DNA of 32,000 nucleotides from Clostridia bacterium (lineage in GTDB: Bacteria > Bacillota > Clostridia > TANB77 > CAG-508): NCBI GenBank assembly GCA_017510525.1, contig JAFWNC010000024.1, forward strand, positions 1 to 32,000, given 5' to 3'. Positions 6,708 through 30,640 of the stretch are shown here, piece after piece. Within the stretch, counting starts at the first letter, position 1; each line of letters starts with the position of its first letter. The position numbers and the translations under genes are program-made. The notes beneath the pieces are model-generated. The model searched no databases and was not told where the DNA came from. It saw only the letters and a list, made by a program, of their open reading frames with translations.

Positions 6708-6770
6708 GGACAACTTTAGTTGTCCGCTACGAAAAATGTAAAATACCGTAGCGGAGAACTAGAGTTCTCC
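6708..6770. repeat. head-to-head pair of GTAGCGGA-headed REP-like hairpins
   Basis: 6708-6730 is the reverse complement of GTAGCGGACAACTAAAGTTGTCC. 6748-6770 is GTAGCGGAGAACTAGAGTTCTCC. Each has a 7-bp stem and a 4-nt loop, and the heads face each other across 17 nt. Confidence 0.7.
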
Positions 6771-6771
6771 A

Positions 6772-6828
6772 TTTGTCGAATTTTGTCGAACGATTTTTGT
6801 TGACTTTTGTAGAAAACCGTATTAGTAT
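6772..6828 (+). promoter_or_regulatory. putative promoter overlapped by four direct TTTGTNGAM repeats, upstream of the VirB4-like cluster
   Basis: TTTGTCGAA at 6772-6780 and 6782-6790, TTTGTTGAC at 6796-6804 and TTTGTAGAA at 6806-6814. TTGACT (6800-6805), a 17-nt spacer, then TAGTAT (6823-6828). Confidence 0.4.
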
Positions 6829-6879
6829 GTTTTTGCAGTGATTTGTTCATATTTATAATTTGTTAAGAAAGGAGGTTAA

Positions 6880-7458
6880 TTGAAGAAAAATAATTCAGTT
6901 CAAGAGTGGCTACCTTTTGACGAAATAATTGAAGAAGGAATTATTAAATTAAAAAATGAAAAATATATTAAAATAGCAAAAATAATTCCAATAAATTATG
7001 AATTAAAATCAGATTTAGAGAAAGAAGCAATTTTAAATTCTTATAAAATATTTTTAAAAACATGTGATTTTAATATTCAAATATTAATTCAAAGTAAAAA
7101 AGAAAATTTAAATAATCATATTTTAAAATTAGAAGAAGAAAAAAATAAAAATAATAAATTAAATAATATTTATGATAATTATATTAATTATATAAAAAAA
7201 ATAAATATTGAAAATAAATCTTCTTCAAAAAATTTTTATATTATCTTTGATTTTTTTAATCCAGATTTAAATTCTAAATTAATATCCGAAAAAGAAAATT
7301 ATGAAAAAATAGTAAAAAATAATTTAAAAGAAAAATTTTTTAAAATAAAAGAATGTTTATCAAGATGCGGAAATTTTGTTATTGATGTAAATGAATATGA
7401 AGAAATAAAGGATGTATTATTTTCATTTTTTAATTGTAGAAAAAAAATTAAAGAATAG
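6880..7458 (+). CDS. N-terminal domain of a Gram-positive VirB4-like (TcpF/Orf16-type) conjugation ATPase, encoded as a separate ORF
   Basis: 192-aa ORF with a TTG start 4 nt after AGGAGG (6870-6875). The pattern VQEWLPFDEI..GII.L...KYIKIAKIIPINYELKS..EKEAILNSY resembles, from memory, the N-terminus of Firmicute T4SS VirB4 homologues. Confidence 0.55.
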   Translation: MKKNNSVQEWLPFDEIIEEGIIKLKNEKYIKIAKIIPINYELKSDLEKEAILNSYKIFLKTCDFNIQILIQSKKENLNNHILKLEEEKNKNNKLNNIYDNYINYIKKINIENKSSSKNFYIIFDFFNPDLNSKLISEKENYEKIVKNNLKEKFFKIKECLSRCGNFVIDVNEYEEIKDVLFSFFNCRKKIKE

Positions 7459-7470
7459 GAGGGATAATAA

Positions 7471-9214
7471 ATAAACGAAAAAAATGAGATTGCTCCTGCA
7501 TATATTAATTTAAATAATCCTAAATTTATTGAAATTGATGGAATGTATTATGCAGGTTTAATTATTACTGATTATAATAGAGAATATAAAGAAATAATTT
7601 TAAAAAATATTATAACAACTAATTTAAATATGAATATTTCAATGTTTTACGAAAAGAAAGATAAATATAAAACAATTAGAGATTTAACTTATCATATTAG
7701 TAATGTAAGTGTAGATTTAAAAAATAAAAATGAAAATAAACAAGATATTGATATTGCTGCATTTACTTATAATGATGCTAAATATATTAGAAGAGAAATG
7801 CAAGTTAATAATGAGGATTTATATTTTATTTATTTATATTTATGTTTATATTCTGAAGATACAAAAGAATTAGAATTTAATTTAGATAAAATAGAAGGTT
7901 TATTGCAGAGTAATGGAATACAGACAAGAAGAGCAAATTTTAGGCAAGAACAGCTTTTTTTAACATGTACACCTATGATGAAAAATGATTTAGAAATTAA
8001 AAATGCAAGTAAAAGAAATATTTTAACAAGTAGTTTAGTATCTACATATCCATTTATTTCTTCGTCAATTTTCGATGAAAACGGTATTTTATTTGGAAAT
8101 AATATTTATAATAATTCTCTTATTTTTATAGATAAATATGACAGAAATAAATATAAAAATGGAAATATGTGTGTTTTCGGGGAAAGTGGTGCAGGAAAAT
8201 CATTTTCAACAAAGCTTCAGATTCTAAGATATAGATTACTTGGAGTAGATCAGTATGTTATTGATCCTGAAAGAGAATATGAAAAAATATGCAAAAAATT
8301 AAATGGAACAATTTTAAAAATTGGGCCATCTTCTGAAACATATATCAATGTTTTAGATATCAGAGAAGAATCTATTGAAGAAAATAAAGGTTATTTATCA
8401 AATAAAATTCAGAAATTAATTGGTTTTTTTAAATTAATTTTCGGTGATATTGATGAAGAAGAAAAGGCCATTATTGAGGAAAAATTAATTTTAACCTATA
8501 AAGAAAAAGGAATTACTTTTGATGATGATACACTTTATAATAAATCAGATAAATTTAGATTAAAACCTGAATTTAAAAATACATCACAAATGCCTATTTT
8601 AGAGGATTTTTATAATGTATTAGGTAGAGATGAAAGAACAAAAATATTTCAAATAAAATTAACTCCTTTTGTTAAAGGTTCATTAAAATTCTTTAATAAT
8701 TATACAAATATTGAATTAGATAATCCATTAATAATAGCAGATGTTTATGAATTAGGAGAAGAGAATTTAAAATATGGTATGTATATTTTTACAGAATTAT
8801 TTTGGGATAAAATAAAAAAAGATAGAAATAAGAAAAAAGCAATTTATTTAGATGAAATTTGGAGATTAATAGGTGTTACTTCAAATAAGGAAGTTGCAAG
8901 TTTTATTTATAAAATATTTAAAACTATAAGAAAATACGGCGGTTCAGCGTCTGCTATTACTCAAGATATATCAGATTTATTTAGTTTAGAAGATGGTATT
9001 TATCGGAAAGAGTATTTTAAATAATTCATGTATTAAATTATTTTTTTCTCTAGAAGAAGAAAATATAAATTTATTAAGTAAATATACCAATATTACTGAA
9101 AAAGAAAAAATAGATATTAAATCACTTAGAAAAGGTGAGAGTTTAATGTTTATAGATAAAGATCATTTATTAGTTAAAATAACTTGTTCAGATGAAGAGA
9201 AAGAAATTGTATAG
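7471..9214 (+). CDS. VirB4/TrsE-like type IV secretion ATPase core. It has one +1 shift at in-frame CGG 9004-9006, and its conserved N-terminal part has no canonical start codon.
   Basis: Walker A GESGAGKS, IDPEREY, Walker B AIYLDEIWRL and RKYGGSASAITQD. After the shift the frame continues GKSILNNSCIKLFFSLEEE...GESLMF. The first ATG is at 7543, but the stop-free frame extends upstream to ATA 7471, which lies 8 nt after AGGAGG (7457-7462). Confidence 0.8.
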
Positions 9215-29658: not shown

Positions 29659-29769
29659 AACATTGTTACAAAAAAAACATGAAAAAGAAATGATAATGAA
29701 AAAAAACGGAAAAACGTTGATAATAAAAAGATAGAAAGTATTATTAAAACAAACAATACTCAAAGAAGC

Positions 29770-29797
29770 TTTACAATAAAAAAACAAGTATTATAAT
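29770..29797 (+). promoter_or_regulatory. putative promoter of the cohesin-domain gene
   Basis: TTTACA (29770-29775), a 16-nt spacer, then TATAAT (29792-29797). Confidence 0.45.
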
Positions 29798-29832
29798 ATA
29801 TAGTAAGAATATTATAAATAAGGGGTAAAAAA

Positions 29833-30522
29833 ATGACAAAAAAAGTAATTATTTTAGTAATAAGTTTGTTTTTAATAATCGCACTAATTCCACAAGTAAA
29901 AGCAGCAACATTTAACGTAAATCCAACATTAAGTAAAACAGAAGTAAAACCTGGAGAAACATTCACAGTAACATTGAGATTAGAATCAGAGGATGGAATT
30001 AGTGGAATATCGTTAGATTATGAGTATGATACAGAAAAATTAGAACGCGTTAATGCAACACTATTAGATAGAAAATTTGGAGATATGACAGAGTTAGATG
30101 AAAATGATGAACCAACTAATACTATGGATTTGATTTTAAATGGTTCAAGTACTGTAACATCATCTGATTGCTATTCAATAGAATTTAAAGTGAAAAGCAA
30201 TGCAACAGTTGGAGAAAAAGCAAAAATATCATTTAAAAATATTGAATATGGAACAGATGCATCAAGTAATTCAGATGGAACCATAGATTTAATAGAAAGA
30301 GAAGTTACAATAGTACCATCATCAACACCATCGCCATCTACTTCTCCATCACCATCACCATCAACTGATGAAACACCAGGAAATGATGAAAAAGATCCAT
30401 CAGCTGCAGATAAAAAATTTCCTTCAGCAGGAAAAATGATATTATCTACAATAGCAATAGCTGGAATAATAGCGGCAGCAATATTTGGATTCTTATATAG
30501 AAAATACAGAGATGTAAAATAA
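29833..30522 (+). CDS. cell-surface cohesin-domain protein with a Pro/Ser/Thr linker and a C-terminal anchor
   Basis: 229-aa ORF with a signal peptide. The cohesin-like beta-sandwich start is ATFNVNPTLSKTEVKPGETFTVTLRLES..GISGISLDYEYDTEKLE. The linker is PSSTPSPSTSPSPSPST. The tail is FPSAG, a hydrophobic helix, then RKYRDVK, which looks like a sorting signal. Confidence 0.7.
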   Translation: MTKKVIILVISLFLIIALIPQVKAATFNVNPTLSKTEVKPGETFTVTLRLESEDGISGISLDYEYDTEKLERVNATLLDRKFGDMTELDENDEPTNTMDLILNGSSTVTSSDCYSIEFKVKSNATVGEKAKISFKNIEYGTDASSNSDGTIDLIEREVTIVPSSTPSPSTSPSPSPSTDETPGNDEKDPSAADKKFPSAGKMILSTIAIAGIIAAAIFGFLYRKYRDVK

Positions 30523-30528
30523 AATAAT

Positions 30529-30640
30529 GTGGGACGCAATTTTGGGGACGCACACCAAATCAAAGCAGTTTGATTTGGTGCGCGTCCCCAAAATTGCGTG
30601 TGCAGATTTCTCCGTCCCCAATGCACACTTTTTCCCACTT
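30529..30640. repeat. composite GC-rich palindromic element
   Basis: A stem of about 31 bp (30534-30564 against 30569-30599, one A-C mismatch) with a GCAG loop. A third partial CGTCCCCAA copy and a 7-bp GTGTGCA/TGCACAC stem followed by TTTTT are also present. It lies between the cohesin gene and murF. Confidence 0.6.

Follow-up and report, generated by a model that had tools for sequence, protein, structure and literature searches.

GTAG-headed REP hairpins in an AT-rich Clostridia genome and their probable place in a widespread RAYT-linked repeat family

The short GC-rich hairpins found between the genes of a gut Clostridia MAG are very probably bona fide REPs of the GTAG type, and one of their classes (class 1) belongs to a widespread family linked to RAYT-like transposases. 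They were analyzed in a stretch of 32,000 nucleotides (the window) from a very AT-rich host genome (26% GC) whose assembly encodes proteins MBR3133659.1 to MBR3133670.1. The region is oriC-proximal. Since class 1 recurs nearly unchanged elsewhere, both inside and beside a RAYT-like gene, these repeats extend the known proteobacterial system and do not constitute a new kind of element.

The window contains 13 headed GC-rich hairpins (11 with GTAG and two with ATAG heads), two “double-foot” palindromes and one headless palindrome (Table 1). All of them are intergenic, in line with an earlier note on this DNA that had placed them between genes or at gene ends. That note had counted about 17 copies; the coordinates it listed were correct, its total gives way to the numbers above, and the heads that it had taken for GTAG at 20847-20872 (-) and 26908-26935 are actually ATAG. 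Three or more subfamilies can be distinguished, namely class 1 (GTAG-GGGCGGG...), class 2 (GTAG-GGGCGACCA...) and class 3 (GTAGC-GGAGAAC...). The motif GTAGGGGCG occurs eight times in the window with at most one mismatch (0.25 expected) and GTAGCGGA five times exactly (0.12 expected). When only GTAG sites ahead of a hairpin with a stem of 6 bp or more and four or more G/C were accepted, nine remained, compared with 0.18 +/- 0.43 and a maximum of three in 200 first-order Markov simulations, so that the proposed family of GTAG-headed palindromes is well founded. In 50 kb of this organism GTAG is the top 4-mer before such hairpins (10/214 or 4.7%, mean 0.36%), i.e. it is enriched 13-fold ahead of GC hairpins. 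Across the 51 kb covered from this MAG there are 14 headed copies; none lies within a gene and they cluster between 6.7 and 28.3 kb, with only one further good copy in the 18 kb beyond the window. In general, REPs of the GTAG super-family carry an unpaired GT[AG]G 0-2 nt 5' of their hairpin, usually number more than 100 per genome and are dispersed through extragenic space. No CRISPR array was found in the window, where spacing is irregular and orientations are mixed; a search of 2.9 million viral contigs gave no match to the repeats and no Rfam family fits them.

Table 1. Repeat copies and related palindromes in the window (L203 and L204 are relatives)
Position	Strand	Feature	Context or remark
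6708..6730	-	class 3 REP GTAGCGGACAACTAAAGTTGTCC	left of facing-head pair; between gyrB and TraC-like gene
6748..6770	+	class 3 REP GTAGCGGAGAACTAGAGTTCTCC	right partner of facing-head pair 6708/6748
13090..13115	-	GTAG-headed hairpin GTAGGGGCACTATTAGCAAAGTGCCC	3' of gyrA, between convergent genes
13125..13155	.	“double-foot” palindrome GTAGCAAGTT...AACTTGCTAC	fold -12.7 kcal/mol, z -8
18974..18999	-	class 1 REP variant GTAGGGGTGGGGTTCCATCCCCGCCC	no counterpart at orthologous site in L203, L204
19055..19080	+	class 1 REP GTAGGGGCGGGCTTCCACGCCCGCCC	tRNA-Arg starts 14 nt downstream
20551..20576	+	class 2 REP GTAGGGGCGACCATTGGTCGTCCGTG	upstream of SRP RNA gene; none in L203, L204
20799..20820	.	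headless palindrome, class 3 stem, ATGGAGAACTCTAGTTCTCCAT	
20823..20847	+	imperfect class 1 REP GTAGGGGCGTGGCTTGACCCCGCCC	weak fold, z -1.1; missing from relatives
20847..20872	-	class 2 REP, ATAG head	rest identical to 20551 copy
20890..20915	+	class 1 REP GTAGGGGCGGGTTTCCATGCCCGCCC	dnaX start codon 23 nt downstream
26835..26857	-	class 3 REP GTAGCGGAGAACTCTAGTTCTCC	between convergent genes
26878..26900	+	class 3-headed copy, weak stem, GTAGCGGAGCTAAAGTATTGCTC	z -0.9, structure unsupported
26908..26935	.	“double-foot” palindrome, ATAG heads, ATAGCGGACATTTTTAAATGTCCGCTAT	fold -13.9 kcal/mol; terminator-like
28195..28218	+	class 3-headed copy GTAGCGGAGCTAAAGTATTGCTCC	between divergent genes; z -1.7
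28243..28268	+	class 1 REP, compensatory stem change, GTAGGGGCGAGTTTCCATGCTCGCCC	ypeB-like start codon 34 nt downstream
30534..30599	.	almost perfect long palindrome, 31-nt arms	no GTAG head; candidate only

The units are 23-26 nt long and many stem types exist across genomes. In well-formed copies GTAG is unpaired and the predicted hairpin begins directly after it (e.g., 6708..6730 with a DNA fold of -5.8 kcal/mol and z -3.97), while those at 20823, 26878 and 28195 have no advantage in stability over shuffled sequence. Pairing is conserved despite sequence change: at 28243 GGGCGGG/CCCGCCC is replaced by GGGCGAG/CTCGCCC, as already proposed, and Clostridium grantii has this variant too. Class 3 stems covary in the same manner (GGAGAAC/GTTCTCC, GGAGCAC/GTGCTCC, GGACAAC/GTTGTCC, GGCGCAC/GTGCGCC). 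Full pairing is seen at half of the GTAGCG sites and at none after a shift of the 3' arm by +1 to +3, and slid-arm controls for stem pairing generally gave about zero. The G-T wobbles of classes 1 and 2 lie on the GTAG strand, which fits a strand-specific single-stranded structure. Some assignments of the earlier note had to be narrowed. The copy at 13090 (-) has the head and first stem bases of class 1 (only GTAGGGGC is common to both) but a different stem; those at 26878 and 28195 have the class 3 head with weak 5-bp stems; the palindrome at 20799-20820 is related by its class 3 stem but is headless. The palindrome at 30534-30599, which that note had listed as related within 30529-30640, has no other copy among 202 loci compared.

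The pairs with heads facing inward at 6708/6748, 18974/19055 and 26835/26878 are real, and heads-outward pairs occur at 20823/20847 and 20551/20847, the latter flanking the SRP RNA gene. Both “double-foot” palindromes (13125-13155 and 26908) show a head ... inverted head layout. As the partners in the window are mostly unlike REPs, these doublets are REP dimers and not clean REPINs. Clean REPIN-like doublets are found in C. grantii, together with elements of 200-250 nt that carry inverted class 1-type REPs at both ends, heads outward. The gene-internal doublet described below has the same geometry.

The repeats are not confined to this organism. An exact pattern scan with one genome per species revealed at least 120 loci in at least about 60 genomes with the class 1 26-mer GTAGGGGCGGG(T/C)TTCCA(T/C)GCCCGCCC nearly unchanged. 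Among the matches listed, carriers are found in Clostridia, Chloroflexi, Acidobacteriota and Armatimonadetes, and twelve or more bacterial lineages have the sequence almost unaltered; the isolate C. grantii DSM 8605 and a 1.1-Mb Chloroflexi contig are included. Of the 151 copies in these loci, 122 belong to four variants, and the commonest one across phyla is GTAGGGGCGGGTTTCCATGCCCGCCC, the copy at 20890. The class 2 core of 20551 is also present in the goat-rectum MAG RGIG2985 and at another site in L204. Class 3 (GTAGCGGAGAAC...) was detected in 60 low-GC contigs from rumen metagenomes, whose 329 kb contain 193 GTAG hairpins, a density biased by the choice of contigs for carrying class 3; the exact sequence of 6748..6770 occurs eight times in rumen metagenome contigs.

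An all-against-all ORF comparison across the listed class 1 loci returned a single recurrent small protein, a Y1 (HUH) transposase of 158-190 aa from nine Clostridia-type genomes. It matches Pfam Y1_Tnp PF01797 (E 2e-7 to 1.5e-4) and best of all NCBIfam NF047646, “REP-associated tyrosine transposase” (E 1e-16 to 1e-17), with scores of 61-64 bits that stay under the curated cut-off of 80 bits. Its sole PDB match is E. coli TnpAREP 4ER8 (E 2.6e-8). In the alignment the HUH motif, the catalytic Tyr and the GTAG-contacting WQ/(E->D)H/R, whose roles in TnpAREP were described in PMC6006769, are all found, with the motifs MPNHIH, WQRS(F/Y)HDHIIR and YIDTN in these proteins from other genomes. A class 1 REP lies inside the transposase gene in all nine genomes and also beside it in five of them (27-107 nt outside the gene at loci L009, L030, L060, L073 and L104). 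The 26-mer is in frame and its reverse complement encodes GGHGNPPLQ, whereas a second, forward REP within the gene encodes VGEG(F/L)(H/C)ALP. In seven of the nine co-occurrences the gene itself holds the searched pattern, and these hits thus represent shared sequence and not independent adjacency. The identical class 1 REP accompanies RAYT-like genes at L009, L030, L041, L060, L072, L073, L083 and L104, so a Y1 transposase flanked by these repeats (the REPtron arrangement), as asked for at the outset, does exist in other Clostridia genomes. The protein has at least 7,549 homologues, some of them named “REP element-mobilizing transposase RayT”; none of ten NCBI-accessioned homologues checked comes from this MAG. 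The cognate enzyme of the class 1 family is very probably this RAYT-like Y1 (HUH) tyrosine transposase, which is common in Clostridia.

In relatives with 86%, 80% and 75% DnaX identity the gene order is kept but the REPs are elsewhere, which means that the repeats turn over and are not gene-specific terminators. The copy at 19055..19080 is common to the window and L203. At the dnaX and tRNA sites of L203 and L204 other REP types occur, among them a decayed class 2-like copy at the tRNA-Arg site of L204. Database strains of this species are about 100% identical and show no within-species variation.

It is unlikely, though it deserves more weight than the other alternatives, that the copies are orphans in a genome which lost or never had the cognate RAYT and are now decaying or kept as host hairpins or protein-binding sites. 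The 51 kb covered contain no RAYT gene, as the earlier note had observed for the window. Some copies are degenerate (the ATAG heads, the weak stems of 20823, 26878 and 28195, the headless 20799), class 1 copies of the window differ mutually at 2-4 positions, and the decayed copy in L204 points in the same direction. However, 51 kb are an estimated 2-3% of the genome and the absence of RAYT from them says little. Moreover, five REPs are specific to the window if compared to the relative whose DnaX is 86% identical, which points to their gain in the fairly recent past, and the two class 2 copies 20551 and 20847 are identical at 25 of 26 nt.

The origin of the copies, especially of class 3, as ends or remnants of IS200/IS605-type elements or MITEs moved by a non-RAYT transposase is very improbable. 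The hairpins do resemble the subterminal hairpins of IS200/IS605 (PMC3333891). In both systems a Y1 HUH enzyme would recognise a single-strand hairpin that has a tetranucleotide guide beside its stem. The 200-250 nt elements of C. grantii could be read likewise, and the 329 kb of class 3 contigs contained neither RAYT nor any recurrent neighbouring gene. In contrast with such elements the copies neither enclose nor adjoin an IS body or tnpA/tnpB, and most of them are solitary units and not element ends. GTAG is the RAYT signature, and in 329 kb plus 812 kb the RAYT-like ORF is the only recurrent transposase adjoining copies.

Ordinary gene-specific terminators or attenuators that share a GC-rich stem by chance are largely refuted and the least credible source: many copies do form stem-loops shortly past stop codons and 13090 (-), 20551 (+) and 26908 fit the hairpin-plus-T-run consensus, but head and loop are conserved besides the stem, the T tail is missing in most copies (the consensus fits 3 of about 16 elements), three class 1 copies lie directly (14-34 nt) upstream of tRNA-Arg, dnaX and ypeB, separate canonical terminators are present at 13032-13067 and 19178-19203, the sites are not conserved between related species and the same 26-mer occurs in all those unrelated genomes.

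The preferred reading as REPs is in accordance with the proteobacterial REP/BIME/REPIN systems of E. coli and Pseudomonas, which likewise have an unpaired 5' GTAG under a GC-rich hairpin of 20-40 nt (PMC3733652; PMC6006769), extragenic location, compensatory stems, several subfamilies per genome, inverted dimers and a Y1 HUH partner, here in other Clostridia genomes, that aligns with 4ER8 including the GTAG contacts. Differences concern the host, a Clostridia MAG of 26% GC, the near invariance of class 1 across many phyla (REPs are usually described as species-specific), the pairing of unlike REPs in the window and the position of the RAYT-like proteins under the curated cut-off. According to PMC3733652, GTAG REPs were known from no groups other than Proteobacteria, Cyanobacteria, Chloroflexi and the PVC group, and the literature searched holds no earlier report from Firmicutes. 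Among known RAYTs, TnpAREP subclass 2.4 (equivalent to RAYT Group 4; Quentin et al. 2018, Bertels et al. 2017) appears closest, a likeness based on described traits. It is characterized by REPs inserted in frame between HUH and Y, a stem base of three G-C pairs and “double-foot” REPs (PMC6006769), all of which recur here; the single-copy gene in a housekeeping context also agrees (ligA, NAD kinase, argR and recN at L127). Unlike subclass 2.4, which is described as abundant in Cyanobacteria and Bacteroidetes and only “scattered” elsewhere, the present proteins have thousands of members in Clostridia MAGs, and their E100->D exchange was reported for subclasses 2.5 and 2.7 (PMC6006769).

By analogy with E. 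coli TnpAREP, the GTAG-bearing strand would fold on transiently single-stranded DNA, the transposase would bind the hairpin and read GTAG with its conserved W-Q...D-H..I-R segment, and the catalytic tyrosine would cut and rejoin the strand. As a consequence, copies would be gained, lost and exchanged in intergenic DNA. Some settled copies probably double as RNA or DNA hairpins, e.g., as terminator-like or 5'-UTR stem-loops; RAYT catalysis in this genome and any host function are inferred.

The constancy of class 1 may be due to the in-frame inverted pair in its own RAYT-like gene, which brackets the HUH-coding segment, because gene and repeat would then move as one and share the same constraints. 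Such a gene-internal doublet could be the master copy seeding genomic REP and REPIN populations. Tentatively, and with more doubt than confidence, we consider that the class 1 REP is unusually ancient or unusually transferable and that the GTAGC-headed family saturates low-GC rumen Clostridia, with a copy roughly every 1.7 kb in the sampled contigs. Taken together, this would make Firmicutes a major and so far undescribed REP-RAYT reservoir.

To our knowledge, nearly all that is known of REP/RAYT biology comes from Proteobacteria. Gut and rumen Clostridia commonly carry repeats of this kind and a related Y1 enzyme, including genomes of 26-30% GC in which the repeats stand out sharply. The thousands of RAYT-like genes form a new and very large comparative set and provide an example of physically interleaved repeat and enzyme sequences. 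The repeats also explain many spurious “hypothetical proteins” in MAG annotations (with peptides such as GRAWKPAPT or GGHGNPPL) as translated repeats. Such sequences can fragment short-read assemblies and influence the ends of mRNAs.

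The GC-rich hairpins of the window are all intergenic and reading of each locus proved the coordinates in the earlier note right. They comprise class 1 (a 26-mer beginning GTAG-GGGCGGG), class 2 with a second GTAG stem type and class 3 (GTAGC-GGAGAAC). With at most one mismatch GTAGGGGCG occurs eight times in the window (0.25 expected) and GTAGCGGA is found five times (0.12 expected). When GTAG has to precede, by 0–2 nt, a perfect stem of six or more bp that includes four or more G/C, nine sites are found compared with 0.18 ± 0.43 in first-order Markov simulations, and in 50 kb of this organism GTAG is the tetranucleotide that most often precedes such a hairpin (4.7% versus a mean of 0.36%). 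In the predicted single-strand fold of well-formed copies the hairpin begins directly after the unpaired GTAG; the predicted folds of copies 20823, 26878 and 28195 are weak. Most copies carry the GTAG head, with 20847(-) and 26908 headed by ATAG instead, and 13090(-), listed under class 1 in the earlier note, has a stem unlike that class. Among the related palindromes 13125–13155 is headed at both ends (a double-foot REP), as is 26908–26935, and 30534–30599 has no GTAG head. The latter, 66 nt long and nearly perfect, has arms of 31 nt (-36 kcal/mol in the DNA fold) and separates murF from a cohesin-domain gene; the 97%-identical strain L137 retains it, and no further copy was found among the 202 loci compared. 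The GTAG strand carries the G-T wobbles, at T12-G19 of class 1 and at the third pair of class 2 (in the related species L204 as well), which points to a strand-specific single-stranded form, either DNA or RNA.

The motif is not confined to the window. Scanning one genome per species (185,579 species) with the pattern GTAGGGGCGNGNNNCCANGCNCGCCC, whose 20 fixed bases are expected to match about once by chance, revealed class 1 in at least 120 loci from about 60 genomes among the matches listed. The carriers among these matches are mostly Clostridia, with Clostridium grantii DSM 8605 as a cultured example; by name the others are Chloroflexi/Dehalococcoidia/Anaerolineae, Acidobacteriota, Armatimonadetes, Prevotellaceae, Lentisphaerae, Myxococcales, Desulfovibrionaceae and several candidate phyla, and the GC content of carriers ranges from 26% to 70%. 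Several class 1 loci are located on contigs of 0.9–4.2 Mb and bin contamination is therefore not the explanation for all of them. A scan of 2.9 million viral contigs gave no class 1 match, which makes the element chromosomal rather than phage-borne. Within the 120 loci listed the four variants GTAGGGGCGGG(T/C)TTCCA(T/C)GCCCGCCC make up 122 of 151 class 1 copies, and the class 1 sequence is nearly fixed. The same loci (812 kb) contain 451 GTAG-headed GC hairpins with many other stems. If a few RAYT loci and the window are added, 36% of GTAGGG sites precede an 8-bp stem that pairs throughout around a loop of 6 nt versus almost none in a slid-arm control (3' arm moved by +1 to +3), and two to four kinds of Watson-Crick pair occur at several positions of the stem. 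In L007, L057, L107, L113, L114 and other loci (Candidatus Fimenecus and Ruminococcus MAGs) the class 1 REP lies within a longer repeat (e.g., ...CCCGCCCgtgaattttgat), and translation of these repeats yields spurious ORF families with peptides like RAGVETRPYK that cluster like protein families.

Class 3 is a real family. Its pattern GTAGCGGASAACTNNAGTTSTCC was found in JGI metagenome records on 60 contigs (329 kb, 26–40% GC), all from few WGS sets (JAEEGL, JAEEGF-H and AUXO prefixes) that we take to be rumen metagenomes. These contigs contain 193 GTAG-headed hairpins with the compensatory stem series GGAGAAC/GTTCTCC, GGAGCAC/GTGCTCC, GGACAAC/GTTGTCC, GGCGCAC/GTGCGCC and GCAGACC/GGTCTGC, and half of the GTAGCG sites are fully paired versus none with the arm moved by +1 to +3. 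Class 1 is almost absent there, and neither a RAYT-like ORF nor another recurrent neighbour gene was found in these 329 kb. The class 2 core is also present in another ruminant MAG and in L204.

An all-against-all comparison of ORFs within the 120 class 1 loci listed revealed, besides an ABC transporter family and junk repeat ORFs, one small protein recurring in nine loci from nine genomes. It matches Pfam Y1_Tnp, and among NCBIfam models “REP-associated tyrosine transposase” fits it best (E 1e-16 to 1e-17; 61–64 bits, under the cut-off of 80 bits). A profile of six members matched a single solved structure, E. coli TnpAREP 4ER8 (E 2.6e-8), with which the HUH motif (MPNHIHLI), the tyrosine region (YIDTN) and the segment WQRS(F/Y)HDHIIR can be aligned. 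In the E. coli enzyme GTAG is contacted by W94, Q95, E100, H101 and R104 (PMC6006769); the RAYT-like protein of Clostridia differs in having D at the position of E100. Two profile searches covered 5.8 billion proteins; in one of them at least 7,549 clusters (90% identity) of this RAYT-like family passed E 1e-10, and “transposase [Clostridia bacterium]” and “REP element-mobilizing transposase RayT” are among the names of its members. In L127–L130 the gene is single and located between ligA and NAD kinase/argR/recN genes.

Seven of the nine RAYT-like genes contain the class 1 26-mer in frame, as a reverse complement that is translated to GGHGNPPLQ and falls between HUH and tyrosine, and a second, forward GTAG hairpin upstream of HUH encodes VGEG(F/L)(H/C)ALP. 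These REPs are opposed and therefore the gene carries an inverted pair whose heads point outward on either side of the HUH-coding segment, at a distance of about 164 nt. TnpAREP subclass 2.4, which is RAYT Group 4 of Bertels et al. 2017, was described as unique in three traits, namely in-frame REPs within the gene (generally between HUH and Y), three G-C pairs at the start of the stem and double-foot REPs (Quentin et al. 2018, PMC6006769). By these published traits the REPs of the Clostridia genes match the picture. In L073 (1993–2562) both internal REPs are tandemly duplicated in frame (VGGGFHAAPDVGGGFHAAPD and TGGHGNPLTGGHGNPPLQ), which suggests ongoing REP dynamics within the gene. Clostridium grantii DSM 8605 (L037, L067, L111) possesses elements of 200–250 nt with inverted class 1-type REPs at their ends and GTAG outward (GTAGGGGCGGG...GGGGCGGCGTGGAAACCGCCCCCTAC); their spacer is AT-rich with a variable tandem repeat and their geometry is that of the REP pair within RAYT-like genes.

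For this genome the window and 10 kb per side from a 65-kb ruminant-gut metagenome contig 100% identical to it were examined. These ~51 kb contain no RAYT gene by tblastn and profile HMM, which for the window agrees with the earlier note. Ten NCBI-named homologues from the best 120 of more than 7,500 matches were checked by accession and none is from the MBR313xxxx MAG, the NCBI record of the window proteins (MBR3133659.1 for DnaA, MBR3133670.1 for GyrA). The AT-richest RAYT matches, P0051 and P0056, were rejected as genes of the same organism since their contigs have 33–38% GC and come from other samples.

The proposed comparison of strains gave no differences, as the contigs of this species in databases are 99.4–100% identical across the REP-bearing part and the 97%-identical L137 begins after the last REP. 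Related species were more informative (DnaX identity 86% for L203, 80% for L204 and 75% for L205): gene order is kept in all three and REP positions differ (see table). The class 2 REPs 20551–20576 (+) and 20847–20872 (-), identical in 25 of 26 nt and with heads outward, flank the SRP RNA (20686–20781) and a promoter-like site (20628–20656). Both copies are absent in L203 and L204 with the SRP gene at the same position, and between the REP insertions the SRP RNA gene and its promoter align perfectly across the relatives. These site differences are those of a repeat that is mobile or rapidly exchanged and not of gene-linked regulatory hairpins.

REP positions at orthologous sites of the window and three related species, and beside RAYT-like genes of five class 1 loci
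Site	Window or named locus	L203	L204	L205
After gyrA	13090(-) and double-foot	one double-foot REP	none	not covered
Upstream of tRNA-Arg	two class 1 (18974-, 19055+)	one class 1, orthologous to 19055	decayed class 2-like	not covered
Around SRP RNA, upstream of dnaX	five elements	one class 3-like REP (GTAGAGGAGAAC...) before dnaX	same as L203	none
After ypeB	none	region not conserved	two REPs	none
Between ybaB and recR	none	none	none	one REP
RAYT-like gene, L009	two REPs, 27 and 70 nt upstream
RAYT-like gene, L030	two REPs, 37 and 107 nt upstream; no internal REP
RAYT-like gene, L060	one REP, 88 nt upstream
RAYT-like gene, L073	three REPs, within 366 nt downstream
RAYT-like gene, L104	one REP, 27 nt downstream

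As to ordinary gene-specific terminators, only three elements fit the consensus of hairpin plus T-run, separate canonical terminators exist, three class 1 copies lie 14–34 nt upstream of tRNA-Arg, dnaX and ypeB, and the sites differ between relatives, so that this reading was largely rejected. Interpretation as IS ends was considered and rejected or downgraded, and CRISPR was dismissed as there is no array structure. Rfam at gathering and relaxed thresholds detects only tRNA-Arg and SRP RNA plus sub-threshold chance matches, and no family fits the REPs. One such match, SECIS_5 within the coding region of recR (23289–23354 (+); 38.2 bits versus a gathering score of 50, E 3e-4), is probably due to chance.

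The window represents the origin-proximal part of a chromosome with ~26% GC and the gene order dnaA, dnaN, fragmented recF, gyrB, gyrA, tRNA-Arg, SRP RNA, dnaX, ybaB, recR and ypeB-like. The presence of ypeB (sporulation), dnaD/dnaI-type and cohesin/dockerin genes in this region is consistent with a Firmicute of the class Clostridia. RecF (2931–4252) is seemingly split in three ORFs of 218, 75 and 78 aa (2931–3587, ~3785–4012, ~4016–4252) in all contigs of the species, which could mean a pseudogene or a frameshift. The stretches 6880–10442 and 13175–18484, together with L135 14808–16340, contain conjugation/T4SS-like genes between gyrB and gyrA (TraC-like, P-loop TraG-like and a weak T4SS pilin match), DnaD-like and DnaI/IstB-like genes adjoining gyrA, and a TraG/T4SS coupling-protein gene further downstream. 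The cluster adjoining gyrA (DnaD/DnaI-like and T4SS pilin-like genes) is kept in L203 and L204 and therefore resembles either an old insertion that has become fixed or a system specific to the lineage. Between the gyrB terminator and the class 3 REP pair ~400 nt (6240–6640) are G-poor and C/A-rich on the + strand, the GC skew flips there (-0.015 versus ~+0.3 around), and neither an ORF nor an Rfam match was found in it. The stem ATCCACA...TGTGGAT recurs in three terminator-like palindromes, of which one follows the first recF fragment (3553–3580), one lies in the gyrB–TraC spacer (6654–6681) and one follows gyrA (13032–13067); they form another family of similar hairpins, AT-rich and separate from the REPs.

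GTAG REPs were surveyed in Proteobacteria, Cyanobacteria, Chloroflexi and the PVC group, with Firmicutes not listed (Di Nocera et al. 2013, PMC3733652), and at the protein level RAYT Group 1 is known from Clostridia (Bertels et al. 2017). In the literature searched no description of REP or REPIN populations in Clostridia was found and the motif string gave unrelated eukaryotic matches only. The REP reading of the earlier note is supported by the anatomy of the repeat family, its cross-genome spread and covariation, its turnover between related species and, in other genomes, the way it is interleaved with a RAYT-like gene. By analogy with E. coli TnpAREP a RAYT-like enzyme in this genome would cut and rejoin the GTAG strand, and some REP copies may serve the host as hairpins. 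The mechanism is not new, and the finding is of use for comparative REP–RAYT work and for MAG annotation. Besides a second, GTAGC-headed family for which no RAYT-like partner gene was found in 329 kb of contigs, there is an unusually conserved main repeat, and the REP–RAYT system extends to low-GC Clostridia.
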